From the NCBI GenBank assembly GCA_037045055.1, contig JBAOHJ010000001.1, positions 60,176-124,175 on the forward strand: a stretch of DNA of 64,000 bases, in the 5' to 3' direction. Positions 24,404 through 38,287 of the stretch are shown one piece after another; the first letter of the stretch is position 1; each line of letters begins with the position of its first letter. A model generated the notes under the pieces. The model saw only the letters and a program-made list of their open reading frames with translations, was not told the origin of the DNA and ran no database searches. Both the position numbers and the translations under genes were made by a program. The stretch comes from Dermatophilaceae bacterium (GTDB taxonomy: Bacteria > Actinomycetota > Actinomycetes > Actinomycetales > Dermatophilaceae).

Positions 24404-25327
24404 TCAGGCGGGACCGCCGGTGGCGGACGACGTCGGGTCGAGGTCGAGGGCGAGGGACTGCTCCAGCGGGGCCGGCGCCAGGCCGAAGGTGTCCTGGGCG
24501 TCGGAGGCGTCCAGGACGAACGGCGCCCGGAACTGGTACTGCGTCTCGCGCAGCTCCCGAGCGACGGGCACGACCATGCCGGCGGCCCAGAGCACGGCAT
24601 ACGGCATGGCGCGCAGCTTCAGCGGCGTGCCGAGCCGGTCGGCGGCCATCTGCGCGAGGGTCCTGATGCTCACCGGCGGCGCGCTGGGCACGTGCCAGAT
24701 CCGGCCCCAGGCCGACTCGTGCTCGGCGACGGTGGCCAGCAGCCGGGCCACGTCGGCGACGCTGGTCCAGCTGTGCGGGGCGTCGAGGTCCGCGGGGACG
24801 TATGCGGTGCGGCCCTTGCGCAGCGCAGGCGTCACGACGGCCGACAGCAGGCTGCTTCCGCCGAGGTAGTCGCTGCCGCGGACCTCGACGGCTCGGATGC
24901 GCCCGTCCCGGTGCGCCTGCAGGGCCTGACGGGTCATCGCCGCCCGGACCCGGCCTTTGGTGCCCGTCGCCGCGTCGGGCAGACCCTCGACGATGGGGCC
25001 GGTGACGGGGCCGTAGGGGTAGAGGTTCCCCGTCGTCGCGAGGACCGCGCCGTTGGCCTGCGCGGCGGCGACGAGCGCGTCGGCGATCGGCGGCCAGTCG
25101 GTGGCCCACCGGTGGTAGGCCGGGTTGACGCAGTTGTAGATCGCCGCGGCGTCGACGCAGGCCGCCGCCAGAGCCGGCGCGTGCGCGGCGTCCAGGGCGG
25201 TGAGCTCGGCGCCCGCGGGGCCGGTGCCCCGGCGGGTGACCACACGCACGTGCTCGCCCCGAGCGAGCAGCAGCCTGGCCAGATGGGTGCCGACCGGTCC
25301 GGCGCCGACGACGACGTGGGTGTTCAT
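24404..25327 (-). CDS. NAD(P)-binding epimerase/dehydratase-family (extended SDR) protein
   Basis: N-terminal VVVGAGPVGTHLARLLLARG Rossmann motif. 307 aa. Confidence 0.75.
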   Translation of the reverse strand: MNTHVVVGAGPVGTHLARLLLARGEHVRVVTRRGTGPAGAELTALDAAHAPALAAACVDAAAIYNCVNPAYHRWATDWPPIADALVAAAQANGAVLATTGNLYPYGPVTGPIVEGLPDAATGTKGRVRAAMTRQALQAHRDGRIRAVEVRGSDYLGGSSLLSAVVTPALRKGRTAYVPADLDAPHSWTSVADVARLLATVAEHESAWGRIWHVPSAPPVSIRTLAQMAADRLGTPLKLRAMPYAVLWAAGMVVPVARELRETQYQFRAPFVLDASDAQDTFGLAPAPLEQSLALDLDPTSSATGGPA

Positions 25328-25386
25328 GAGGGGGTGGGCCTTCCGTGACGGCCGTCGCGGGGTTCGGACGGCTGAGGGTCTCGATC

Positions 25387-25451
25387 GAGAGCAGTGCTCT
25401 CATGGGCGAGCATGCCTCACGCGCCCAACGCACGTCAAGAGCGGTGCTCAC
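25387..25451. promoter_or_regulatory. Two related operator-like palindromes in the SDR/TetR divergent spacer
   Basis: GAGAGCAgTGCTCTC (25387-25401, perfect 7-bp arms) and the related AAGAGCGGTGCTCAC (25437-25451). Both lie in the 165-bp spacer upstream of the TetR gene. Confidence 0.45.
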
Positions 25452-25492
25452 ATACGTGACTGACGATCTCTGAGGGGGCATACTGGGGTGTC

Positions 25493-26200
25493 ATGGCGAC
25501 CCCGACCCGGCCCACCGTCCGCGAGCGCGTGCGCGCCGAGATGACCGACGAGATCACGCGGGTGGCACGCGAGCAGCTGGCCCGGCAAGGTGCCAACCTG
25601 TCGATGCGGGCCGTCGCGCGCGAGGTTGGCGTGGTGTCGTCGGCGCTCTATCGGTACTTCCCGAGCCGGGACGAGCTGCTCACCGCGCTCGTCCTGCACG
25701 CCTACCGAGAGCTCGCGGTCGCGGCAACGGCAGCCGAGGCCACCGCCCCGCGCGAGGACCCGGCGGGGCGGTGGGCGGCGCTGTGTCACGGGATCCGCGG
25801 ATGGGCGCAGGCACATCCGCACGAGTACGCGCTGCTCTACGGCACGCCCGTGCCCGGGTATGCCGCCCCCCCCGAGACAGTCGAGCCCGCCTCGGTGCCG
25901 CTGCTGCTCATGGTGGCGATCATGCGGGAGGCGTTGGCCGAAGGCCGGTCCCGACCGCGACCCCAGCCGCCGATGGGCCAGACGCTGCGGGCCAGCTTCC
26001 TGGCGATCGCCGCCTCACCCGGCCTGCAGGGAGGCACCGCTGAGGACATGGCCCGGCTGAGCATCGCCTGGACTGCGGTATTCGGGGCGATCAGCTTCGA
26101 GCTGTTCGGACGGTTGCAGGGCGCTGGTCTGGACTATGACGCGTGGTTCGCCTACCAGGTGCAAGCGCTTGCCACCGATTTGGGGTTGGTCGACCCGTGA
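25493..26200 (+). CDS. TetR/AcrR-family transcriptional regulator
   Basis: N-terminal HTH MRAVAREVGVVSSALYRYFPSRDELL. 235 aa. Confidence 0.87.
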   Translation: MATPTRPTVRERVRAEMTDEITRVAREQLARQGANLSMRAVAREVGVVSSALYRYFPSRDELLTALVLHAYRELAVAATAAEATAPREDPAGRWAALCHGIRGWAQAHPHEYALLYGTPVPGYAAPPETVEPASVPLLLMVAIMREALAEGRSRPRPQPPMGQTLRASFLAIAASPGLQGGTAEDMARLSIAWTAVFGAISFELFGRLQGAGLDYDAWFAYQVQALATDLGLVDP

Positions 26201-26260
26201 GAAGCGCGGGCCCGTGCAGCGGTGTCCACGCTCGTCGGCGATTCTTGGCCCGAGACGCGA

Positions 26261-26278
26261 TCAGATGTCGTCGTAGTG
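26261..26278. repeat. Duplicate of the 3' end of glnA (att-like): TCAGATGTCGtcgTAGTG
   Basis: Matches TCAGATGTCG-TAGT at 26801-26814, which is the glnA stop codon plus its last codons. 11 nt are contiguous and 14 nt match when one 3-nt indel is allowed. Confidence 0.5.
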
Positions 26279-26299
26279 ACCAACCCGCTCTGACCTGCG

Positions 26300-26730
26300 C
26301 CGAATGTTGTTTCTCATGGCGTTGGGTGCGCGCTGGGGACGCTCGGCGCCGCGCTCCAGGCGGGTTCTGAGGGGTCCGGAACGCCTGACTCGAGTTCTTG
26401 TCGAGGGCGGGGTCGACCAACCGGGCGACGAGGTCCCCGGCCTCTGCTGCGGTATGGGCTCGGCCGTCGGCACGCCCTCGGCGGTGCCCGGGGAGGTGCG
26501 GTGCCCGCCCTCGGGGATGGCGGTCGCGTTCGGGTCCCACGACTTACGACACGACGTCGCGTCCCTGCTCATCGGGTCCGGTGCGGACGTCAAGTCGTGC
26601 AGCGACGGCTGCGGCCTGCCAGCGCCACGACGACCCTCACCACCGACGCGCCCTTGTGCCCCGACGCGGACGAGTCCGCCCGCGCTGCCGTGGGTGTCGT
26701 GCGGGCAGCGCGTGCGGACTCGCCGGTAGC
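26300..26730 (+). pseudogene. Decayed tyrosine-recombinase (phage/ICE integrase) fragment, catalytic domain only, frameshifted
   Basis: One frame reads LFLMALGARWGR (box I-like) ... SHDLRHDVASLLIGSGADVKS (box II HxLRH). After a frameshift the next frame reads VVQRRLRPASATTTLTTDAPLCPDADESARAAVG, where LGHAS..T..Y.HL is expected. The N-terminal half is missing. Confidence 0.6.
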
Positions 26731-26800
26731 CACGGCGGACCAACTGCGGACTCGAAGGAGGTCTCTGGCGAGTTTGCGCAGGTCAGTCGGCATCTGACCG

Positions 26801-28225
26801 TCAGATGTCGTAGTACATCTCGAACTCGTGCGGGTGCGGGCGGAAGCGGATCGGGTCGACCTCGTTCTTGCGCTTCCAGTCGATCCACGTGTCGATGAGG
26901 TCCTGGGTGAACACGTCGCCCTCGAGCAGGAACTCGTGGTCGTCCTCCAGCGCGGCGAGCACCTCGGGCAGCGAGCCGGGCACCTGGGCGATGGCGTCGT
27001 GCTCCTCCGGCGGCAGCTCGTAGAGGTCCTTATCCACCGGCTCCGGGGGCTCGATGCGGTTCTTGATGCCGTCCAGGCCGGCCATGAGCTGCGCCGCGAA
27101 GGACAGGTACGGGTTGGCCGACGGGTCGGGGATGCGGAACTCGATGCGCTTGGCCTTCGGCGAGGTCCCGGCGATCGGGATGCGCACGCACGCCGAGCGG
27201 TTGCGGGCCGAGTAGACGAGGTTGACCGGCGCCTCGTACCCGGGCACCAGCCGGTGGTAGGAGTTCACCGTCGGGTTGGTGAAGGCCAGCAGCGCGGGGG
27301 CGTGCCTGAGCAGCCCGCCGATGTACCACCGGGCCAGGTCCGACAGGCCGCCGTAGCCGCTCTCGTCGTAGAACAGCGGCTTGCCGTCCTTCCACAGCGA
27401 CTGGTGGGTGTGCATGCCGGACCCGTTGTCGCCGAACAACGGCTTGGGCATGAAGGTGGCCGACTTGCCGAACTCCCAGGCGGTGTTCTTGACGACGTAC
27501 TTGAACTTCATCATGTCGTCGCCGGAGGCGAGCAGGGTGTTGAACCGGTAGTTGATCTCCTGCTGGCCGGCGGTGCCGACCTCGTGGTGACTGCGCTCGA
27601 CGGTGAGGTCGACCTCGGCGAGGTTGAGGCAGATCGCGTCGCGCAGGTCGGCGAAGTGGTCCAGTGGGGGCACCGGGAAGTACCCGCCCTTGTAGCGCGG
27701 CTTGTACCCGAGGTTGCCGCCCTCCTCGACCCGACCGGTGTTCCAGGCCCCCTCCTCGGAGTCGATGAAGTAGTAGCCGGCGTTCTGCTTGGTCTCGAAG
27801 CGCACGTCGTCGAAGATGTAGAACTCCGCCTCGGCGCCGAAGTACGCGGTGTCCGCGATGCCGGTGGACTTGAGGTAGGACTCGGCCTTGGCGGCGATGT
27901 TGCGCGGGTCCCGGCTGTAGGGCTCGTCGGTGAACGGGTCGACGATGGAGAAGTTCATGATGAGCGTCTTCTCGGCGCGGAACGGATCCAGGTAGGCCGT
28001 CGTCACGTCCGGGACGAGCTTCATGTCCGACTCGTGGATCGCCTGGAAGCCGCGGATCGAGGACCCGTCGAAGGCCTGGCCGACGGTGAAGAAGTCCCCG
28101 TCGACGCTCTGCGCGGGCACGTTGAAGTGCTGCATGACGCCAGGCAGGTCGCAGAAGCGGATGTCGACGAACTTGACGTCCTGGTCCTTGATGTAGGCCA
28201 GGACCTCGTCGGCTGTGGTGAACAA
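26801..28225 (-). CDS. glnA: Glutamine synthetase type I (GlnA1-type, 474 aa)
   Basis: Full-length GSI with [23 protein letters not shown] and [13 protein letters not shown]. An adenylylation-loop-like [10 protein letters not shown] is present. Confidence 0.95.
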
Positions 28226-28321
28226 TCCAACCTCCTCAGGATGGGCACGGGCGGAGCGCGAGCGCTGACACGGCTCGTTTGCCCCCCGGGTGTGCTTCGG
28301 CCCGAAGGCTGGCAGAGGCGG

Positions 28322-28360
28322 ATTTCCCGACGGTGTAGCGGATGTTTCGCCCGTGTTAAC
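28322..28360 (-). promoter_or_regulatory. Candidate GlnR box upstream of glnA: TTAAC-n6-GAAAC-n6-TACAC-n6-GAAAT
   Basis: Read on the minus strand 97-135 nt upstream of the glnA ATG. Spacing and half-sites fit the Streptomyces GlnR consensus gTnAc-n6-GaAAc-n6-GtnAC-n6-GAAAc (consensus recalled from memory). Confidence 0.5.
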
Positions 28361-28422
28361 TGCCCCCGCCCGGTGCGCGACGGGACGACGCCCGGGTGCG
28401 CAGACGGTCGTAGGCTGACCGG

Positions 28423-28899
28423 GTGATCGACCGCCGAGACGTGGCCTCCTGGCTGCAGGGACCCTCCGGGCGTCCAGCGGCCACCCAGGACTACCCGGGT
28501 CAGCGCCTCGGGCTGGCGCCGTCCGGGCCCGGCTCGATCGGCCGCTTCGGTCGACGGCTGGTGGGTCTGCTGGTGGACTGGACGCTGGCCCAGCTCGTCG
28601 CCTGGGTGGTCTTCAGGGTCGGTTGGGGGGACCCCGGGGCGGCCAGCTTCGCCCCGCTGGGGGTGTTCGCGGTCGGGCATCTGGTGCTCGTGGGCACGGT
28701 CGGCTTCACCGTCGGACACCGGGTGGTGGGTCTGGCCGTCGTCTCGATGAGCGGGGGCCGGCCCACCGTGGCGCAGGCGCTCATCCGGACCTCGTTGCTG
28801 TGCCTGGCGATCCCGGCCCTCATCTGGGACGGCGACGGCCGCGGCCTGCACGACAAGGCGGCCTCGACGCTGCTGCTGCGGATGGGCGAGCCCGACTGA
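28423..28899 (+). CDS. RDD-family membrane protein
   Basis: [16 protein letters not shown] and a later D...HD pattern, with three hydrophobic segments. It occupies the same position next to glnA1 as Rv2219A in M. tuberculosis (from memory). Confidence 0.72.
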
Positions 28900-28909
28900 C
28901 CAGGCGGAT

Positions 28910-28965
28910 CGGCCGGGTCGACGAACCGGAAAGACCAGCCGGACCGGCCGGGTCGACGAACCGGA
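28910..28965. repeat. Two identical 21-bp direct repeats CGGCCGGGTCGACGAACCGGA (28910-28930 and 28945-28965), period 35 bp
   Basis: Exact copies read directly. They begin 11 nt after the RDD stop, at the left edge of the ECF-CHAT-S8 insert. Confidence 0.8.
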
Positions 28966-29186
28966 CTGTCCCGCGCGCGCTCGCCGGCCCCGACGTCGAT
29001 CGAGGTATCAGCGGCCCCGATCCGCGCTCCTTCCTTCGAATGTCCGCACACCTCGGAGGGGCCATGAACCGGTCGGGCGACGCACTCGCGGTGGCGACGT
29101 GGTCGCGTCCGGGGGATGGAAGTGTCCCGCGGCACCCGGCATACCGGCGCGATACTGGGGCGAAACCCCCTAGCCGAGGAGTGACC

Positions 29187-29774
29187 GTGACTCGGGACGC
29201 CACGCTCACCGAGCTCGTCGCTCGGGCCGCAGAGGGCGACCAGGGGGCGTGGGACGAGATCGTCGCGCGGTTCTCCGCACTGCTGTGGTCGATCGCCCGG
29301 GGCTATCGGCTGGAGACCAACGCCGCTGCCGACGTCGTCCAGTCGACCTGGCTGCGCCTCGTCGAGTCGCTCGCACGGATCCAGGAGCCCGAGGCCCTGC
29401 CCGGGTGGCTGCTGACCACCTGCCGGCGCGAGGCGATCCGTGTCGTGCGGGCGAAGGGCCGGGAGGTCCTGGCCTACGACGACCCCCTCGACGACGACCC
29501 CGACGACGGCCCACCGCCGGACACCGCGCTGCTGACCGACGAGCGCGATGCCGTGCTGTGGGCCGCGTTCCGGCGCCTCGGCGAGCGCTGCCAGCGGCTG
29601 CTGCGGGTGCTCATGGCGCCCGAGTGCCCGCCGTACGCGGTGGTCGCCACCGAGCTGGGCATGCCGGTCGGCTCGATCGGCCCCACTCGGGGGCGGTGTC
29701 TGGGGCGGCTGCGGGGGCTGCTGGCGGACACCGGCTACGACTTCGGTCCCGCCTGGGAGGGGAGCATCCCATGA
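29187..29774 (+). CDS. ECF-type RNA polymerase sigma-70 family factor
   Basis: Region 2 (FSALLWSIARGYRLETNAAADVVQSTWLRLVESL) and region 4 (CQRLLRVLMAPECPPYAVVATELGMPVGSIGPTRGRCLGRLR). GTG start at 29187, 6 nt after GAGGA. GTG 29181 is an alternative start. Confidence 0.85.
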   Translation: MTRDATLTELVARAAEGDQGAWDEIVARFSALLWSIARGYRLETNAAADVVQSTWLRLVESLARIQEPEALPGWLLTTCRREAIRVVRAKGREVLAYDDPLDDDPDDGPPPDTALLTDERDAVLWAAFRRLGERCQRLLRVLMAPECPPYAVVATELGMPVGSIGPTRGRCLGRLRGLLADTGYDFGPAWEGSIP

Positions 29775-30259
29775 CCGACGAGCGGACCCACGACCTCCCG
29801 CCCGAGGACCTCGAGCTGCTCGCGCAACTGCGGCGGGCGGCCGAGGGAGCCGACCCCGAGCCGGCCTATCTGCGGGAGCTGGGGCGGGCGGCGTTCTCGG
29901 TGCGCCGCGTGGAGGCCGAGTTGGCGCGGCTGGTCGCCGACTCCACCCGGCAGCGCGAGCTGGTGCGCTCGGTCGGCGGCGATCCCCGGCTGGTGACGTT
30001 CGCCGCCGACGAGGTGACCATCGAGGTCCAGGTGTCGCGGCTGGACCGCTCGCCCTACCTCATCGGGCTCGTCGAAGGGCTGCCCCAGCCACAGGCGGCG
30101 CGGGTCGACGTGGAGTCCGCCGCCGGGCGGCTCGTCACGGCCCCCGTGGACGACCTGGGCCGCTTCACCGTCGACGACGTGCCGCCCGGCCTGCTGCGGC
30201 TGCGGGTGCTCGCCCCCGCGGTCGACGTGACCACCGACTGGCTCAGCCTGGCCGACTGA
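29771..30259 (+). CDS. Hypothetical soluble protein (162 aa), translationally coupled to the ECF sigma gene
   Basis: ATGA start/stop overlap at 29771-29774. No TM segment and no HxxxCxxC zinc anti-sigma motif. The C-terminus has a beta-sandwich-like GRFTVDDVPPGLLRLRV segment. High GC3. Confidence 0.55.
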   Translation: MTDERTHDLPPEDLELLAQLRRAAEGADPEPAYLRELGRAAFSVRRVEAELARLVADSTRQRELVRSVGGDPRLVTFAADEVTIEVQVSRLDRSPYLIGLVEGLPQPQAARVDVESAAGRLVTAPVDDLGRFTVDDVPPGLLRLRVLAPAVDVTTDWLSLAD

Positions 30260-30312
30260 ACCGCATCGCGGGTATGCCGCGCGGCACGAGCGCCCGGCCG
30301 AGCGCACCGCGG

Positions 30313-32931
30313 CTACCCCCCCCAGGGCGTGAACGACACCGCCGCGGTGTGGCTGGCCGGGTCGTCTCGGGCGCTCAGCCGCGCCGCTGCCATGGCGGTC
30401 GACAGGCACTGCCCGCCGGCCAGGCCGTCGTGCAGCGCCGTCATCACCGGGATGGTCGCGGCGTCGTTGACGGGCACGACGCTGGCCAACACCGCCCTGG
30501 TGCCCAGGCCCAGCAGCGCGGTGACCAGCCCGAGGCCCTCGTCGGCGCCGACGGCCGCGGTGTCGCCGGCGTCGCAGGCCGACAGCACGAGGGTGTGCGG
30601 GGGGCGGGTCATCCCGTCGAGGTCGTGGAAGTACAGCGGCCCGTCGGCGAGGGTGAGCGCGGAGAACAGCGGCGCGTCGGCGCGGAAGCTGCCGTGCGCG
30701 GCCAGGTGGGCCAGGCCGGCGCCGTCCAACGCCCGGACCGTCTCGGCCACCGTCGCGCCAGCGCCGGACAGCACGGTCGCGGCGGCATACCGGGCGGCGA
30801 CGGCGGTCGCCTCGGCCGCCTGCGAGGTCAAGCCCGGCCCGGTGACCAGGACCGGTCGCCCGGGTGGTGGCACGGCAGCGCTGCGGGCCTGCAGCCACAG
30901 CCGTGCCGACGGGGCCAGCACGAGGCGGCGCGGGAACAGGGCCGGCAGCAGCCCCCACGGGGCGGCGTGCAGCGCCGCGGGGGGCACGACGACCACCCGG
31001 CCGGGCAGCCGGTCCGCGACCGGGCCGAGCAGGGCCTGCTGCAGCCGGGCGCCCATGCGAGCCACGTCCGCGGGCCGTCCGTATGCCGCCCGACGCAGGG
31101 CGAAGCGCGCGAACTCGCTCTCCCGCAAGGCGATCGTGGTGGCGCCCACCTCGTGACGGGTCACCCGCCCGCGGTGCACCCGCACGGCATACAGGGTGTC
31201 GCGGACGTCGACGAGGCTCACCAGCGCGTCGGACCCGACCGCCTCGACGAGGGCACCGAGGTCGAGCCGGGAGCTCTGCTCGCCCGACCCGCTGAGCTGC
31301 CGGTACCGACGGCGGATGCCGGCCTCGTGGCGGGCCCGCTCTCGGGTGGCTCGAGCCACCGTGGCGGCATCGGCGGCCGGGTCCTGCAGCCGACGGGTGG
31401 CCTGCCGGGCGCCGGCCAGGGTGGCGGCGAGCTCGGGGTCGGGTGGCGGGTGCACCGGGGTGGCGGCCAGCGCGGTGGCGCGCCAGCGCTCGCTCCACCA
31501 GAGCAGGTCCCGCGCCGACCCGGTGTCCAGCGCGCTGACCAAAGCCAGGGTGGACAGGTCCCGGCCGTGTCCGGTGGCCAGGGACCGCAGCTCGGTGTCG
31601 CCGAACGTGGCCCGGAACTCGTCCAGCGCGTCCAACCCCCGCCGGCAGGCGTGGCGCAGCGCCCGGGTGTCGGCCTGGGCGCCGGAGCGTAGGGCCGCGG
31701 CCAGCCAGCCGGAGGCCCGCGGCAACGACGCGCCGGTATGCCGCCCGCGCGCGGCCGCGTGCAGCTCCCGCTGGGCCACGCCCGGGCGGCGCAGGGTGAG
31801 CGCCAGGCGCCCGGCGAGCAGGTGGGCCAGCGGCGCCTCCGGGCCGCTGGCGCCGTCGAGCCGGCCGGCGAGGGCTATCGCCCGGGAGAGGTCTCGTGCG
31901 GTGGCCGGCCGGCCGGCCATCAGGGCCTCGGTGCGGACCAGCTGCGCGCGCCCGGCCCACGAGCCGCGCCGCTGCCGGGCGAACAGCGTGCCCGCTCTCG
32001 TGGCCAACTGCACCGCATCGGCGTCGTGGCCCAGCTGCAGCGCGGCCGAGGCCGCGACGAGCAGGAACTCCCCGCGCATCGGCGGCGGGACGTCGTCGCG
32101 CTGCGCGGCGGCCGTCGCTCGGGCCAGGGCCTCGGGGGCCAGCCCGGCGATCTGCAGCGCCCGGCAGCGGGTCTCCTCCGGCTCGGGCGGCACCGTGCCG
32201 CCGGCGGCGAAGTGCCGCTCGGCCTGCTCCAGGATGGCCAGCGTCCTGGGCAGGTCGCCGCGGTAGAGGGCGACGAGGGCCCGGTTGCCCACGACCCAGC
32301 CGGCCTCGAAGTGCTGACCGGCGGCGGCGAAGCGGGCGGCCGCGGCCTGCGCGTCGTCCTCGGCCGCGTCGTAGCGGCCCAGCAGACCCCGTGCCCAGCC
32401 GCGGTGCTCCAGGCAGCGGGCCTCCCAGACGAGGTCGCCGGCCCGGCGGGTGGCGACCAGCGCAGGGCCGAGGTGTTCCAGCGCCTCCTGCGGGCGCTCC
32501 AGGCGCAGCAGGGCGTGGGCCAGGCGCAGCCGGACCCGGGCTCGGTCCAGGCCGGTCACCAACCGGATCGCGTCCTGGAGTCTGGACAGGCCGGCCTGGC
32601 TGCGTCCGGCGGCGACGAGCAGCACGCCGAAGGTCGCCTGGACGTCGCCGATGCGCGCCGGATCGCCGGTCCGCCGGGCCAGCCGCGACGCCTGACGCAG
32701 ATGCCCGAGCGCGACCTGCGTGCGACCGGCGTCGCGGTGCACGATGCCCGCGGCCTGGTGGGCCACCGAGGCGATCCGCGGGTCGTCGCTCGTGCGCAGC
32801 GCGAGGTGTGCCATTGCTAGGGCTTTGTCCGGCTGGGATAGTGCCAATGGCAGCAGGCCGTCGACGTCGACCGTCGGCGTGGTGCCGGTGGGCGCACCGA
32901 CGAGCGGTGTCGTCGGCGCGGCAGTCGTCAT
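30313..32931 (-). CDS. TPR-repeat + CHAT-domain (caspase-like cysteine protease) protein, 872 aa
   Basis: The N-terminal ~550 aa are helical-repeat-like. The C-terminal CHAT domain has the His/Cys dyad in LAHLAAHGSF and HTLVLSACDAG. No signal peptide or TM segment. Confidence 0.82.
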   Translation of the reverse strand: MTTAAPTTPLVGAPTGTTPTVDVDGLLPLALSQPDKALAMAHLALRTSDDPRIASVAHQAAGIVHRDAGRTQVALGHLRQASRLARRTGDPARIGDVQATFGVLLVAAGRSQAGLSRLQDAIRLVTGLDRARVRLRLAHALLRLERPQEALEHLGPALVATRRAGDLVWEARCLEHRGWARGLLGRYDAAEDDAQAAAARFAAAGQHFEAGWVVGNRALVALYRGDLPRTLAILEQAERHFAAGGTVPPEPEETRCRALQIAGLAPEALARATAAAQRDDVPPPMRGEFLLVAASAALQLGHDADAVQLATRAGTLFARQRRGSWAGRAQLVRTEALMAGRPATARDLSRAIALAGRLDGASGPEAPLAHLLAGRLALTLRRPGVAQRELHAAARGRHTGASLPRASGWLAAALRSGAQADTRALRHACRRGLDALDEFRATFGDTELRSLATGHGRDLSTLALVSALDTGSARDLLWWSERWRATALAATPVHPPPDPELAATLAGARQATRRLQDPAADAATVARATRERARHEAGIRRRYRQLSGSGEQSSRLDLGALVEAVGSDALVSLVDVRDTLYAVRVHRGRVTRHEVGATTIALRESEFARFALRRAAYGRPADVARMGARLQQALLGPVADRLPGRVVVVPPAALHAAPWGLLPALFPRRLVLAPSARLWLQARSAAVPPPGRPVLVTGPGLTSQAAEATAVAARYAAATVLSGAGATVAETVRALDGAGLAHLAAHGSFRADAPLFSALTLADGPLYFHDLDGMTRPPHTLVLSACDAGDTAAVGADEGLGLVTALLGLGTRAVLASVVPVNDAATIPVMTALHDGLAGGQCLSTAMAAARLSARDDPASHTAAVSFTPWGG

Positions 32932-32964
32932 GAGGGTGGTTCCCCAGATTCAGGAGGGACGGAC

Positions 32965-34311
32965 GTGGCAGTCGATGATGGCAGTGGCAGCCTGAGCGGC
33001 GACAAGGGCAGGGTCGAGCCGGACGAACCGGTCCGCCCATTGTGGTGGCAGGACGAGCGGGTGGGGAACGAGCGCACCGCCGACCAGGTCGCCGAGATCG
33101 TCCAGGCCCTCGGCGGACGCGACGCCGTCGGTGTCATCGGCGAGCGTCCCGATGCCGACGGCCGGCTGAGCGAGGCGGATCTCGACGACCCCAAGGACTA
33201 CGGCGACATGGTCTACATGTACCGGCGCGGGCGCATCCTCGTGCGCGACCGGGACCTGCCGCGGGCGCTGCCGGTCGTCGACGGCCGACCGGTGGACGGG
33301 GGAGTCAACGGCCTCACCGTCGTGTCGGTCGCCGACACCCGCGCCGCGCTGGCCGACCTGGACCGGGTGCTGGGTGTCGGCGTCGGTTTCCCGGACCACG
33401 TCGTCCACGTGACCGGGTGGGGCGGCGGCGCGTGCCCCGCGACCGAGCCGATGCCGACGATGTCCAAGCGCCACCCGATCCGCGACTACCACGACGACTG
33501 CACGGGCGCCGGCGTCGTCGTCTCGCTCGTGGACACCGGCTTCGACCCCCTCGTCGCGAAGAACACCGAATGGCTCGACGGGGTCGACGGCGAGGCCGAG
33601 ACCTACGACGTGGACCACCTCGGCCCGTATGCCGGTCACGGCACCTTCGCCGCGGGTGTCGTGCGGACGATGGCCCCCAAGTGCGAGGCGTACGTCTACG
33701 GGTTCCTCCCGCACGGCGGGGCGATCTTCGAGAGCGACATCATCGCCGCGTTGCAGCGGGCCCTCGTGCGCGGCCCCGATGTCGTGTCGATGTCGGCGGG
33801 GACGCACAGTCGCGGCGACCTGGGCATGCTGGGGTTCCGGGTGCTGTGGGAGGAGTTCGCCCCGAAGGGCACGGTGCTCGTCGCCGCGGCCGGCAACGAC
33901 GCCAGTCGCAAACCGTTCTACCCGGCCGCCGACTCGTTCGCCATCGGCGTCGGCGCGCTCGACCCGGACGGCTCCCGCGCCGGCTACAGCAACTACGGCA
34001 GCTGGGTCGACGTCTACGCCCTGGGCTCCGAGCACGTCAACGCCTTCCCCGAGGGCACGTACGACTATCGGCAGGCACCCATGAAGGGACGCACCGCCCA
34101 GTTCGACACCTGGCTGGCCAGGTGGAGCGGGACGTCGTTCGCCACTCCTTTGGTCGCCGGCGTGATCACCGCCCGGATGACCTGGAGCGGCGAGAGCGGG
34201 CAGCAGGCCGGTGCGGCCGTGCTGAGCCTGGCCCGGGCCAACGCCCGGCGCGGCGTCGGTGCCGTCGTCGAGCCGTGGATGGCCTGCCGGCCCGATCAGG
34301 GGTGCTCGTAG
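32965..34311 (+). CDS. Cytoplasmic subtilisin-like serine protease (peptidase S8) with an unknown ~170-aa N-terminal domain
   Basis: Catalytic Asp (VVVSLVDTGF), His (GHGTFAAGVV), oxyanion Asn (AAAGNDAS) and Ser (WSGTSFATPLVAG). GTG start 7 nt after AGGAGG. No signal peptide. Confidence 0.85.
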   Translation: MAVDDGSGSLSGDKGRVEPDEPVRPLWWQDERVGNERTADQVAEIVQALGGRDAVGVIGERPDADGRLSEADLDDPKDYGDMVYMYRRGRILVRDRDLPRALPVVDGRPVDGGVNGLTVVSVADTRAALADLDRVLGVGVGFPDHVVHVTGWGGGACPATEPMPTMSKRHPIRDYHDDCTGAGVVVSLVDTGFDPLVAKNTEWLDGVDGEAETYDVDHLGPYAGHGTFAAGVVRTMAPKCEAYVYGFLPHGGAIFESDIIAALQRALVRGPDVVSMSAGTHSRGDLGMLGFRVLWEEFAPKGTVLVAAAGNDASRKPFYPAADSFAIGVGALDPDGSRAGYSNYGSWVDVYALGSEHVNAFPEGTYDYRQAPMKGRTAQFDTWLARWSGTSFATPLVAGVITARMTWSGESGQQAGAAVLSLARANARRGVGAVVEPWMACRPDQGCS

Positions 34312-34338
34312 GCCCCGGACCCGGGAGGCCCGCGGCGC

Positions 34339-35073
34339 TCAGCGCCCGCGCATCGCCTTGCGGTCCAGCCGCATCCGGCCGGGGTCGATGCCCTGCGGCA
34401 GCGGCACCCGCACGCCGCCCAGGGCCCGCAGCCGCTTGTTCACGGTGGCGACCTCGTCCTTGGTCAGCGTCGGGCGCAGTCGCTGGACCTTCGCGGTGAG
34501 CTTGCGGACCGCCACGACGTCGGCGCCGTCCCCGGTGCCCAGCCGCAGGGCGATGACGGGCACGTCGGGGGCCACCCGGGTGACCTTCTTGCGCTCGGCG
34601 GCGAGCACCCGCTGGGCCCGGGCCTCGGGACCTTCCGCGACCAGCACGACGCCGGGTCGTCCGACCGCCCGATAGACCAGGCCGGCCTCGGCCATGTCCC
34701 CCCCGCGCGCCGCCTCGACCGCGACCGGCTCCTGGCTGGTGAACCAGGTGCCGCGCAGCGCGCTCAAGGCGGCCCCCGCGGCGCCGGGCTTGCCTTCGAT
34801 CTGCCGGTATGCCGCACGCTCGGCTCGCCGGCTCATCACGATGGTCGCGGCGAGCACGGCCAGCGGCAGCCCGAGGAACGCGGCATACACCGGGTAGGCC
34901 AGCAGCCACCCGACGCCGACGACGACCGCCAGGGTGAGCACGAACGCCCCGAGCATCCACCAGCCGATCCGCGGGTCGACGGCCTTGGACTGGCGGTAGA
35001 CGTCGCGCATCTGCGCGATCCGCCCCGGCTTCTTCGTCGCGGCGGCGGGGTCGGGGGTGCGGTCCTTGGCCAT
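34339..35073 (-). CDS. DUF4191-family membrane protein (Rv2219-like)
   Basis: Starts MAKDRTPDPAAATKKPGRIAQMRDVYRQSK, followed by two TM helices. It lies directly upstream of lipA, as in mycobacteria. The start was moved to ATG 35071-35073. Confidence 0.75.
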   Translation of the reverse strand: MAKDRTPDPAAATKKPGRIAQMRDVYRQSKAVDPRIGWWMLGAFVLTLAVVVGVGWLLAYPVYAAFLGLPLAVLAATIVMSRRAERAAYRQIEGKPGAAGAALSALRGTWFTSQEPVAVEAARGGDMAEAGLVYRAVGRPGVVLVAEGPEARAQRVLAAERKKVTRVAPDVPVIALRLGTGDGADVVAVRKLTAKVQRLRPTLTKDEVATVNKRLRALGGVRVPLPQGIDPGRMRLDRKAMRGR

Positions 35074-35078
35074 GGCGG

Positions 35079-36104
35079 TCAGGATACGGCCGGGCCGGCT
35101 CCGGCGACCAACGCGGCGGCCTCCTGACGGGCGGGGGCCGCGGCCGCCGCCGCGAGGTGCGCCAGGTGCGCCGGGATCGGTCGGCCCCAGCGGCCCATCG
35201 CCTGAGCCCACAGCCGCCCGGCGCGGTAGGACGAGCGCACCAGCGGCCCGGCCATGACGCCCTTGAACCCGGCCGCCTCGGCGACCTGCGACCAGTGCAC
35301 GAACTCCTCGGGCGCGACCCACCGGTCCACCGGGTGGTGGCGCGGCGAGGGGCGCAGGTACTGGGTGACGGTGAGGATGTCGCAGCCCGCGTCGGCCAGG
35401 TCCCCGATCGCCGCCGCGATCTCTTCCTCGCGCTCACCCAAGCCGAGGATGAGGTTGGACTTGGTCACCAGTTGCGCCTCGCGGGCCATGGCGAGCACCC
35501 GCAGCGAGGTGTCGTAGCCGAAGGCCGGGCGGATCCGTCGGAAGATCCGCGGCACCGTCTCGAGGTTGTGGGCGAACACCTCGGGTCGGGCGTCGAAGAC
35601 CAGACCGACCAGCTCCGGCCGGGCCCCGAAGTCCGGCGGGAGGATCTCCACCCCGGTGGCCGGGTTGCGCTCGTGGATGGCCCGGACGGTCGCGGCATAC
35701 AGGCTCGCGGCGCCGTCGGGCCGGTCGTCGCGGGCGACCCCGGTGACCGTGGCGTAGCGCAGGTCGAGGGTGGCGACCGACTCGGCGACCCGGCGCGGCT
35801 CGTCGGGGTCCAGCGGCTGCGGACGGCCGGTGGCGATGTCGCAGAAGTCGCACCGGCGGGTGCAGGTGTCGCCGCCGATGAGGAAGGTCGCTTCGCGGTC
35901 CTGCCAGCACTCGAAGATGTTCGGGCAGCCGGCCTGCTGGCACACCGTGTGCAACCCCTCGTCGCGGACCATCGCGTGCATGGCGGTGTAAGCCGGCCCC
36001 ATGGTCGCCCGGGTGCGGATCCACGGGGGCTTGCGCTCGATGGGGGTCTGGGCGTTGCGGGCCTCGACGCGCAGCAGCCGGCGGCCCTGCGGTGCGACGC
36101 TCAC
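35079..36104 (-). CDS. lipA: Lipoyl synthase
   Basis: Auxiliary cluster motif [12 protein letters not shown] and radical-SAM motif CTRRCDFC. Confidence 0.95.
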
Positions 36105-36185
36105 GGTGGCTGCCTTCCTGCCGGGACCGGGTGCGGGACGGTGGACGCTCCAGCCTACGCCGGGATGCCGCCGGTGCCGGCCGCG

Positions 36186-36950
36186 TCAGGGGGCCACGGC
36201 GTCGGCCAGTCGACCCACCGCCTCGGCGACCACCGGCCCGACCATCACCGCGTCGTTGTGCCCCACCCCGGCCAGCACGAGCCGCTCGTGCAACCGGCCC
36301 GTCGCGTCGGCCACCAGGGCGCTGTAGCGCGACGGCACGATGTCGTCGGCGTCGCCGTAGATCACCGTCACGGGGACCTTGCTGTCGCGCAGGTGCTCGA
36401 CCACGGGGAACCGGTCGGGCAGCACCAGCCCGACCGGCAGCCAACCGGCGTGCTGACCGGCCACCTCGGCCAGCGACGTGAACGGCGAGCGCAGCGCGAG
36501 CCCGGCCGGCGGGTCGGTGCCGGCCAGCCGGGCCACCACTGCGGTGCCGAGGGACTCGCCGAGGTAGATGGTCCGCCCGGGGTCGAACCCGGCATCACGC
36601 AGGTATGCCGCGCCGGCCCGGGCGTCGCGGGCCAGGCCGTCCTCGCTCGGCGACCCGGGGTTGCCGCCGTAGCCGCGGTAGTCCATCGCCAGCACGGTGA
36701 ACCCTCGGTCGGCGAGGGCGGCGAACAGCGGCACCCGCCCGTCGCGGCTGCCCCCGTTGCCGGGGCAGAACAGCACCGCGACGCCCCGGTCCCGCCGGGC
36801 CGGTGGCAACAGCCAGGCAGCCAGCCGCAGCCCGTCCTCGGTGCTCAGCGTGACGTCCCGGCCCTGGGGCCACCACTGCCGGACCGACCCGACCCGGGCG
36901 GTGTCGGGGAAGTAGATGAAGGACCGGGCCAGTCCGTGCAGAGGGTTCAC
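36186..36950 (-). CDS. Alpha/beta hydrolase
   Basis: Nucleophile elbow GESLG. Prolyl-oligopeptidase/BAAT-like length of 254 aa. Confidence 0.8.
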   Translation of the reverse strand: MNPLHGLARSFIYFPDTARVGSVRQWWPQGRDVTLSTEDGLRLAAWLLPPARRDRGVAVLFCPGNGGSRDGRVPLFAALADRGFTVLAMDYRGYGGNPGSPSEDGLARDARAGAAYLRDAGFDPGRTIYLGESLGTAVVARLAGTDPPAGLALRSPFTSLAEVAGQHAGWLPVGLVLPDRFPVVEHLRDSKVPVTVIYGDADDIVPSRYSALVADATGRLHERLVLAGVGHNDAVMVGPVVAEAVGRLADAVAP

Positions 36951-37024
36951 GTCTGCGGCCTTGTCCCGTCCATGCGCCGAAGTGTCCCACCGCCGGGGCC
37001 GTCACGGGCGACCGGCCGCGACCG

Positions 37025-38287
37025 TCAGGCCCCGGCGGCCCGCCGGCGGTCGTCCTCGTGGGCGATGGAGCCCAGCTCACGCCACAACGCCGCGAGGATG
37101 AGCGCCGACCCGACGAAGCCGAACCAGTACGGCCCGGTAATGCCCCACCCGGCGGCGATGAGCCCGCCCAGGGCGCTGCCGACGACCATCCCGCCGAGCA
37201 TCGCCATGACATAGACGCTGCCCACCCGCCCCTGGATGTGGGTCGGTACCGCCCGCTGCCGGACGCTGGAGGCGACGGTCGCCCAATAGGCGAGATGGAT
37301 GCCGAAGAGCCCGAGCATCGCCATCGCCACCGCGGGGGTGCTCGTCACCGCGAGGGCGAGGTGGGTCAGCGTCTCGAGGACCAGGCCGTAGCGCATGACG
37401 TCGCCGAGCGGCACGTGCCGCTGCACCCAACCGTAGGTCGCGGTGCCGAGGATCCCGCCGACCGCGCCGACCGTGGTGAGCAGTCCGAAACCCACCGTCC
37501 CGAGACCGAGCCGTTCGGCGGCATACAGGACGAGCACCCCCCACGATGCCCCGTAGGTGACGTTGAAGAAGAGGATCTGCAGCACCAGGGCCCGCATCGC
37601 CCGGTGCCGCCAGGTCCAGGCCAGCCCGGCCCGGATGTCCGCGAGCACGCGCGGCCGGGGCGCGTCACCCTCACCCGGGCGCGGGAGGGTATGCCGCGGC
37701 AGCGCGATCCGGGCGAAGAGCAGCGCGCCCGCGAGGATGCAGATGGTCTGCGCGGCGAACGGCCACGCGGCCCCGACGGCGAACAGCGCCGCCCCGACGG
37801 GCGGCCCGACGAGCTGGTTGAGCGACACCCACCCGAAGGTCAGCCGGGCGTTGGCCACGCCCAGCCCGCCCGGCCCGACGATCATCGGCAGGACCGTGCG
37901 GGACGCCGCGTCGACGAAGGTCTCCGCGGTGGCGACCAGCACCAGGGTGGCGATGACGACGGCCACCGAGACCACGCCGCCGGCGATGCACCCGACGAGC
38001 GCGAGCACACCGACCGCGCGCACGACGTTGCCCCACAGGACGATCCGGCGGCGGTCGTGGCGGTCGGCCAGCGCGCCGGCATACAGGCCGAGGACGAACC
38101 CGGGCAGCCACTGGGTCAGGGCCGCGAGGGACACCAGCCGGGGGTCGGAGGTGAACGAGGCGACGAGCAGAGGACCGGCGGCCAGGGCGAAGCCGTCGGC
38201 GAGGTTGGCCACCCAGACGGAGCCCAGCAGCCAGCGGAACGGCCGGCCCAGCGTCAGCGGCGCGAGCAGGTCGAGGGCGCGGCTCAC
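37025..38287 (-). CDS. MFS transporter
   Basis: The last 420 aa of ORF 37025..38893 are polytopic, with a DRHDRRRIV loop after TM2. GTG start at 38285-38287 overlaps the lipB stop (GTGA). Confidence 0.8.

Follow-up and report, generated by a model that had tools for sequence, protein, structure and literature searches.

The locus between the RDD and DUF4191 genes

The stretch of DNA analysed here, 64 kb of a Dermatophilaceae metagenome-assembled genome (MAG) and referred to below as the window, carries a compact module of four genes. Their products are a sigma factor of the extracytoplasmic function (ECF) type, a small protein encoded directly behind it (the +1 protein), a caspase-like CHAT protease with tetratricopeptide repeats (TPRs), and a subtilisin-like protease of family S8. 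From its taxon, domains, gene neighbourhood, promoter motif and a pair of cysteines in sigma4, we identify it with high confidence as a module of the sigma factor group ECF54. The locus is real, was accurately described when it was first read from the sequence, and is a member of an already catalogued system. We listed the open reading frames (ORFs) of the window and searched their proteins against Pfam and NCBIfam, which gave the following genes and borders (aa, amino acids).

28423..28899, + strand: gene of an RDD-family membrane protein, bordering the cargo site on the left (Pfam RDD, 4.7e-07)
29187..29774, + strand: ECF sigma factor, 195 aa, with sigma2 and sigma4 (Sigma70_r2, 6.5e-11; TIGR02937 match)
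29771..30259, + strand: +1 protein, 162 aa, its start overlapping the sigma stop (ATGA); weak CarboxypepD_reg match (E = 0.009)
30313..32931, − strand: TPR-CHAT protease, 872 aa, convergent with the sigma/+1 operon (CHAT, 1.5e-27; TPR_12, 8.6e-10)
32965..34311, + strand: subtilisin-like S8 protease, 448 aa, its gene separated by 33 bp from the divergent CHAT gene (Peptidase_S8, 2.9e-23)
34339..35073, − strand: DUF4191 gene, right border of the cargo site (Pfam DUF4191, 8e-68)

The ORF list holds only these four genes between the RDD and DUF4191 genes, and both it and the domain searches agree with the positions and domains given in the initial, sequence-only reading of this DNA; the ATGA overlap of the sigma and +1 genes and the 33-bp gap between the divergent CHAT and S8 genes were likewise as reported there. 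In NCBI the four proteins (MEI2764152-55) are annotated as a sigma-70 family sigma factor (MEI2764152.1, from a Dermatophilaceae MAG), a hypothetical protein, a CHAT domain-containing protein and an S8 family serine peptidase. Beyond the RDD and DUF4191 genes, glnA and lipA are the outer neighbours, and the surroundings are of the housekeeping kind.

The module had been taken for an insertion into a conserved glnA-lipA backbone, and a comparison with relatives whose glnA belongs to the same 90% cluster upheld this. In Arsenicicoccus piscis (L087/L088; L numbers denote individual loci), the order is lipB-lipA-DUF4191-RDD-glnA, and the DUF4191 and RDD genes lie 23 bp apart, leaving an empty site (L087 9277-9301). 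Two Knoellia genomes carry ATP-grasp, DUF4097 and PadR genes, unrelated to the module, at the same junction (L089 6742-9302). The module itself is found at the RDD/DUF4191 junction in the window and three relatives only (L002, L005 and L085), in one of which an ABC transporter and a two-component system share the junction with it (L002 5374-14652). In the remaining 78 loci, which were retrieved by S8 homology, it is sited elsewhere in the genome. Because the junction is empty in Arsenicicoccus, holds other genes in Knoellia and holds the module in the window and these three relatives, it is a variable-cargo site in the lipA-glnA backbone, and the module is lineage-specific cargo there. The empty site came to light through the glnA cluster members; a metagenome scan for empty sites with DUF4191 returned two short loci only. 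No mobile-element gene was found on reading the ORFs of the window from 25000 to 38000, and an Rfam scan of 28000-35500 gave no match. In one relative, fragmented ORFs of a Tn3-family transposase (DUF4158, DDE_Tnp_Tn3) lie just past glnA (L002 752-2452).

The composition of the module is host-like. Its tetranucleotide distance to the window falls at the 64th percentile of equal-sized chunks, and its GC content at third codon positions (GC3, 0.92-0.96) is the same as that of the flanks. The octamer CGGCATAC/GTATGCCG, which the sequence-only reading had found at roughly normal density within the module, occurs 71 times in the 64 kb, or about 1.1 times per kb (+ strand, 34 copies; − strand, 37), and the seven copies inside the module (e.g. 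at 29137, 30272, 30783, 31081, 31185, 31736 and 33627) agree with that description. Among all octamers it ranks third by frequency despite its A/T content in a sequence that is 74% GC; its copies are spread evenly and their flanks are not conserved, so that it is not part of a longer repeat.

None of the four proteins had been credited with a signal peptide or a transmembrane (TM) segment. Scanning with 19-residue hydropathy windows, we found no TM-like window in the sigma factor, the +1 protein or the S8 protease. The CHAT protein has a single marginal hydrophobic segment (aa 801-819), which holds an Arg and lies inside the CHAT fold. The RDD and DUF4191 proteins, included as controls, do score as membrane proteins. 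That all four module proteins are cytoplasmic is, on the basis of hydropathy and N-terminal composition, well supported but not proven.

Conservation of the module and its place in ECF54

We next turn to related loci, of which 80 were obtained by a scan of one genome per species with an S8 alignment; their six-frame ORFs were searched with the four window proteins. They span Intrasporangiaceae, Nocardioides, Kribbella, Streptosporangiaceae, Micromonosporaceae, Jatrophihabitans and others, and 79 of the 80 have actinobacterial record titles, the exception (L027) being a MAG labelled Candidatus Limnocylindrales. The CHAT gene adjoins the S8 gene in 77/80 loci (75 divergent, 2 tandem). All four genes are present in 62/80 loci, where they fall into five arrangements and the sigma gene is always followed by the +1 gene; nine incomplete loci end at contig ends. 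The arrangements are these, with arrowheads for gene direction.

20 loci: <CHAT S8> <+1 <sigma
18 loci: sigma> +1> <CHAT S8> (the window type)
15 loci: <+1 <sigma <CHAT S8>
8 loci: <CHAT S8> sigma> +1>
1 locus: S8> CHAT> sigma> +1>

Two conserved pairs thus shuffle relative to each other across many families, and this is a strong sign that the four genes are functionally linked, as the co-occurrence across actinobacterial families also indicates and as had been supposed from the window alone. All-against-all clustering of the flanking ORFs of the 80 loci brought out no fifth gene, and because no other family recurs in more than 8 loci, we take the four genes to be the whole module. The gathering of cargo at the RDD/DUF4191 junction, unrelated genes in Knoellia and an ABC transporter with a two-component system in L002, would be compatible with a chance neighbourhood, four unrelated genes having landed between RDD and DUF4191. 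The return of the same four families at differing genomic sites in many bacterial families refutes this, as does the independent description of the gene set in the ECF54 literature summarised below, and we give it practically no credence. S8 identity drops as the taxa become more distant, and Kribbella genomes retain synteny; both point to a descent of the module that was mostly vertical.

ECF54 was described by Huang et al., 2015 (J Bacteriol) and Casas-Pastor et al., 2021 (NAR). The group's entry in the supplement of the latter (bioRxiv version) gives it as 100% actinobacterial and lists no anti-sigma factor. According to the same entry, a carboxypeptidase-regulatory-like domain always occupies +1 (0.61 per ECF), a subtilase (0.68 per ECF) and a CHAT protein with TPRs (0.71 per ECF) accompany it, GTATCAG (−35) and CTCC (−10) make up the predicted promoter, and some subgroups have two Cys in sigma4. 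All of this is found in the window: an actinobacterial host, no recognisable anti-sigma factor, a CarboxypepD_reg-like +1 protein, a subtilase, a TPR-CHAT protein, the promoter and the sigma4 Cys pair. The gene order here is sigma, +1, CHAT (+2) and S8 (+3), whereas the published summary places the subtilase at +2/−1 and CHAT at +3/−2, and the 4Fe-4S neighbour mentioned for ECF54 in the main text of Casas-Pastor et al. is neither present here nor recurrent in the 80 loci. Nothing essential separates the window module from the published ECF54 context. The sequence-only reading could not assign the module to any named system; it corresponds to the genomic context of ECF54, complete with the ECF54 promoter motif upstream of sigma.

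The sigma factor scores 59.2 bits against TIGR02937 (sigma70-ECF; cut-off 42.9) over aa 21-176 of its 195 residues, and an in-frame GTG at 29181 offers an alternative start. Its sigma4 pair, Cys135 and Cys171, is shared by 41-42 of 66 homologues. Ahead of the gene lies the following element.

29005..29030, + strand: predicted ECF54-type promoter GTATCAG-N15-CTCC, 157 nt upstream of the sigma start

We searched both strands of the 64 kb for GTATCAG-N{14,20}-CTCC and obtained this one match, against 0.01 expected by chance; the word GTATCAG is itself unique in the window on both strands, and no other convincing ECF54-type site was found there. Of 61 related loci, 26 have the same word upstream of sigma, where chance would give about 1 (P = 2e-30). 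It was located by direct word search, a MAFFT alignment of the sigma upstream regions having failed to align the promoter. The site at 29005-29030 implies that the sigma/+1 operon would be autoregulated.

The +1 protein and the two proteases

The +1 protein divides into a helical N-terminal part and a C-terminal beta-sandwich, joined by a variable linker, as follows (AF2, AlphaFold2 model).

29783..29956, + strand: N-terminal helical region, aa 5-62 (motif AAFxWRxxDAELAxLxxDS; AF2 helices)
29966..29968, + strand: codon of Arg66, in V-R-[S/G/A] within the variable linker (R in 64/64 sequences)
29987..30232, + strand: C-terminal CarboxypepD_reg-like beta-sandwich, aa 73-154 (AF2, eight strands)

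In all related loci the +1 gene is directly downstream of the sigma gene, with a 4-nt overlap as the commonest junction (28/66), and the two genes are coupled in translation. The CarboxypepD_reg profile is matched by 26 of 64 +1 homologues, the best at 8.4e-07, and by the window protein itself only at E = 0.009. The family is large, with 1,916 clusters at 50% identity (E<=1e-10); the best 150 of these are 145-207 aa long, nearly all under 175, and are matched over their whole length. The AF2 model has a mean predicted local distance difference test score (pLDDT) of 76, with helices at 5-8, 11-26 and 32-62, values below 50 at residues 49-69, and a well-modelled sandwich (mean pLDDT of 82-96 per 10-residue block from residue 71 to 160). 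The 162-aa protein, whose structure had been left for later prediction, is in its C-terminal part a beta-sandwich, and its family is the ‘carboxypeptidase regulatory-like’ +1 protein of ECF54.

Within the helical part, L16, L20, D48, L51, L54 and D57 are each shared by 90% or more of the 64 sequences. Arg66 is invariant (64/64) at a mean identity of 33%, and the adjoining linker columns vary; it may be a protease cleavage site or a contact with sigma. No match to zf-HC2, RskA or any other anti-sigma profile and no HxxxCxxC motif was found in the +1 protein with Pfam and NCBIfam, and the profiles found none in the 64 homologues. Together with hydropathy, these searches bear out the earlier statements that the 162-aa protein has neither a zinc anti-sigma (ZAS) motif nor a TM helix and that the module lacks a canonical anti-sigma factor. 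The +1 protein is a candidate non-canonical anti-sigma factor or sigma modulator. Its family profile matches the Ig-like repeats of Bap at 1.4e-4, and a Foldseek search of the model against the PDB gave generic Ig-, FN3- and transthyretin-like sandwiches only (E>=5e-3), with no anti-sigma, Csx30-like or CalpT-like match. Two candidates for the N-terminus were dropped as chance: CATRA-C (PF20270), at E = 0.016, is matched by 1/64 homologues, and an RsiG-like match by 2/64 at E = 0.021.

The CHAT protease combines N-terminal repeats with a C-terminal catalytic domain.

32332..32544, − strand: best-scoring TPR stretch, aa 130-200 of the N-terminal repeats (Pfam TPR_12)
30352..31056, − strand: CHAT caspase-like domain, aa 626-860 (Pfam; His746 codon 30694-30696, Cys786 codon 30574-30576)

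Its His/Cys dyad is intact, as had been read from the window: His746 is invariant in 69/69 CHAT homologues and Cys786 is kept in 68/69. The single protein sequence had no match among PDB sequences. With the family profile, the TPRs of LGN/Pins were matched at 5.6e-16, the TPR-type matches covering about profile positions 44-310, and the catalytic segment alone gave a weak match to Csx29 chains (about 3e-4).

The S8 gene has an AGGAGG ribosome-binding site ahead of a GTG start, and its product has three parts behind a variable extension (residues 1 to about 80).

33208..33408, + strand: pro-subtilisin (I9)-like propeptide, aa 82-148 (beta-alpha-beta-beta-alpha-beta in the AF2 model)
33433..33450, + strand: C-P-A-T-E-P signature, aa 157-162, in the linker from the propeptide to the catalytic domain
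33505..34170, + strand: S8 catalytic domain, aa 181-402 (Pfam Peptidase_S8 envelope)

Asp190, His225, Asn311 and Ser391 are invariant in 83/83 sequences, in keeping with the complete catalytic set first noted in the window. The N-terminal domain, which the sequence-only reading left unassigned, is on modelling a pro-subtilisin-like (I9-like) propeptide. It went undetected in the Pfam sequence search; the AF2 model (pLDDT 87; predicted template modelling score, pTM, 0.90; low confidence at residues 151-155) has unautoprocessed pro-subtilisins as its top Foldseek matches (3whi, 3afg and 2e1p; 387-428 columns, E from 2.5e-16 to 6e-19). As in pro-subtilisin E (3whi), pro-Tk-subtilisin (2e1p) and ProN-Tk-SP (3afg), a beta-alpha-beta-beta-alpha-beta propeptide precedes a full S8 catalytic set. 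In contrast to them, the S8 protease here has no signal peptide by hydropathy, carries the extension of about 80 variable residues before the propeptide, and has an invariant CPATEP linker. Because of the propeptide fold and its best matches among unautoprocessed pro-subtilisins, we think that S8 is presumably made as an inhibited cytoplasmic zymogen. In the linker, C157 and P162 are present in 83/83 and E161 in 82/83 sequences, and it could be a processing or regulatory site; we know of no counterpart in classical subtilisins. The type VII secretion mycosins were considered as relatives and rejected, the match to TIGR03921 being partial (80.3 bits against a cut-off of 278.75) and the protein lacking hydrophobic segments.

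Proposed control of the sigma factor

Proteolytic control has been proposed for ECF54 from the conserved carboxypeptidase, subtilase and CHAT proteins in its genetic context, in a review on ECF sigma factors of the non-canonical kind (PMC8999054). The proteolytic switch put forward in the sequence-only reading, with the +1 protein as a non-canonical anti-sigma factor, is therefore a hypothesis already published for this gene set (PMC8999054; Casas-Pastor supplement). What the data show is the gene content, the domains, intact catalytic residues, the promoter motif, the way in which the two pairs are conserved and rearranged, and the fold of the propeptide. The binding partners (+1 and sigma among them), the cleavage partners and the signal are inferred in the following scheme. 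The sigma/+1 operon would be autoregulated from GTATCAG-N15-CTCC, and the +1 protein would hold sigma inactive through its helical N-terminus. TPR-CHAT would sense an intracellular cue through its repeats and cut the +1 protein, for which Arg66 in the linker is a candidate site; S8, once freed of its propeptide, would complete or reinforce the degradation of +1. From GTATCAG-N15-CTCC promoters, the freed sigma factor would then transcribe its own operon and a further regulon elsewhere in the genome, and in some lineages also the S8 gene, which would give positive feedback. Taken as a whole, an ECF54 module that acts as a cytoplasmic proteolytic switch is the explanation toward which we lean, with moderate confidence; for the release of sigma by proteolysis, taken by itself, our confidence stops a little short of even.

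The distribution of the promoter word among the protease genes bears on this scheme. GTATCAG stands upstream of S8 in 10/79 loci (P = 8e-8) and upstream of CHAT in 0/77, where about 1 would be expected in each case. In the window no ECF54-type promoter was found before S8 or CHAT, even with two mismatches allowed. In three of the loci with the word before S8 (L026, L028 and L030) the locus itself lacks a sigma gene, from which control of S8 in trans, by a sigma factor encoded elsewhere, would follow. Since CHAT never carries a sigma-dependent promoter, its expression is presumably sigma-independent. This pattern would fit CHAT as the upstream sensor and S8 as a partly sigma-dependent component. 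The sites before S8 are themselves alike: at L026 9904, L028 9796 and L030 1945, and also at L045 5624 and L053 5277, all Streptosporangiaceae-like loci, a near-identical GTATCAG-N12-TCACTCC is followed within a few bases by GAT(A/G)ATGCTA or GATACTA.

The same promoters could also mean that the proteases are outputs. The +1 protein or transcription alone would then control sigma as some cue demands, and S8 and CHAT would be members of the regulon with other substrates in the cytoplasm, for instance during development or when the proteome is remodelled. The ECF54 −35 word before S8, above all in the three loci that lack sigma, speaks for this, as do CHAT-S8 pairs that have no adjoining sigma/+1 pair and the published caution on reading regulators from context (see below). 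On the other hand, the motif precedes CHAT in none of the 77 loci and neither protease gene in the window. The genes also co-occur tightly as two plus two and no further gene recurs with them, a pattern more usual for signalling units than for regulons. The apparent zymogen and the sensor of the repeat type moreover suggest regulated proteases with a specific target. We consider it improbable that the proteases are outputs only.

Several points weigh against the proteolytic switch. Casas-Pastor et al. caution that context alone cannot separate regulators from targets; of the 16 ECF groups that they give as lacking a canonical regulator, three have experimentally addressed members, and ECF54 is not among the three. 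Our literature search found no experimental study of any ECF54 member. CHAT and S8 are present with no sigma/+1 pair nearby in about nine loci whose flanks are ample, so that the proteases may have roles beyond the sigma factor. Feedback through S8 is not supported in this genome, because its S8 gene, like its CHAT gene, is without an ECF54-type promoter. The N-terminus of +1 matches no known anti-sigma domain in Pfam across the 64 sequences, and Arg66, rather than marking a cleavage site, could have a structural role or contact sigma. To our knowledge, Csx29, the TPR-CHAT protease of the CRISPR-associated Craspase, does not cut after Arg.

The switch has a close parallel in type III-E Craspase, where Csx29 cleaves Csx30, which binds and inhibits the ECF-like CASP-sigma (PMC10028731). 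In both, the gene of a TPR-CHAT protease neighbours those of an ECF-type sigma factor and of a soluble, non-canonical inhibitor of sigma (a candidate one here), proteolysis is proposed to relieve inhibition, and sigma autoregulates its own locus (PMC10028731), as predicted for the window. Unlike Craspase, the module has no Cas7-11, crRNA or CRISPR array, hence no RNA-guided activation, and it lacks Csx31. No similarity of the +1 protein to Csx30 was detectable, the module has an S8 zymogen in addition, and the taxa and contexts differ. Between RDD and DUF4191 we found none of Cas7-11, a CRISPR array, Csx30 or Csx31, and no such family recurs in the 80 loci. One could go further and see the module as a free-standing, CRISPR-independent counterpart of Craspase, a wholly cytoplasmic cascade of two proteases in which CHAT as the sensor would cut +1 at Arg or unlock the S8 zymogen and sigma would so be freed upon an intracellular signal, perhaps from an invader, from development or from cell death. 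This more specific proposal seems to us possible and on balance doubtful.

Two further systems offer precedents for the proteolytic switch. In DdvA-DdvS of Myxococcus xanthus, an ECF sigma factor is paired with an anti-sigma factor that has a separase/craspase-type TPR-CHAT sensor, and caspase-like proteolysis is the proposed trigger (PMC11506125). The TPR-CHAT part of DdvA lies in the periplasm, its active site is incomplete, and it forms one protein with a transmembrane zinc-binding anti-sigma domain; RseP is needed for release (PMC11506125). In contrast, the CHAT protein of the module is separate and soluble and has its His/Cys dyad intact, and the module is free of ZAS motifs and TM helices. 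CalpL-CalpT-CalpS, as summarised in the literature, consists of a SAVED-Lon protease of type III CRISPR, an anti-sigma factor and a sigma factor that is ECF-like; by the same account it differs in using Lon where CHAT and S8 stand here, in its activation by cyclic oligoadenylate and in its link to CRISPR.

These precedents are also what recommends an anti-phage or conflict module, in which TPR-CHAT would sense an invader, the proteases would be effectors or activators, and sigma would turn on defence genes: Csx29/Csx30/CASP-sigma and CalpL/CalpT/CalpS are analogous, and DdvA-DdvS is described as controlling a CBASS-CRISPR island. Csx29 chains are the nearest, if weak, match of the CHAT catalytic segment (3e-4), and the module sits at differing genome sites by lineage, with variable cargo at the RDD/DUF4191 junction. 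Matches to PADLOC-DB v2, however, were partial and low (BovA, 77 aa, 19.5 bits; the candidate ‘subtilase’ PDLC03014, 29.6 bits), with none for sigma or +1, and among the genes that flank the module in the 80 loci, none of CRISPR, CBASS or effector type recurs. The neighbours glnA and lipA are housekeeping genes, the composition is host-like, and the fall of S8 identity with taxonomic distance, with synteny kept in Kribbella, suggests mostly vertical descent. The conflict or abortive-infection role that the sequence-only reading had offered as its second option thus found no positive support, and we regard it as quite unlikely, more so than proteases as mere outputs.

ECF54 is one of the few ECF groups without a known regulator, and the module is abundant, the +1 family alone counting about 1,900 clusters at 50% identity. 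If true, the proteolytic model would be a new and fully cytoplasmic control of an ECF sigma factor, a CRISPR-free relative of the logic of Craspase and CalpL, and the ECF54 family is a good candidate for such a protease-controlled switch. The window locus adds no new kind of system; its value is that of a clean, compact example with testable details, namely the promoter at 29005-29030, Arg66 of +1, the S8 propeptide with its CPATEP linker, and the motif that occurs before S8 and never before CHAT.

Two observations concern individual loci. In a Terrabacter-like genome (L001 3899-9174), an FHA/FtsK-SpoIIIE (EccC-like) ATPase gene and two WXG100 genes stand immediately upstream of the module, a type VII secretion-like neighbourhood that does not recur in the other loci and is probably coincidental. 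Finally, one Streptosporangiaceae MAG (JBAPYC01) has two CHAT-S8 loci (L030 and L068), so that some genomes carry more than one protease pair.

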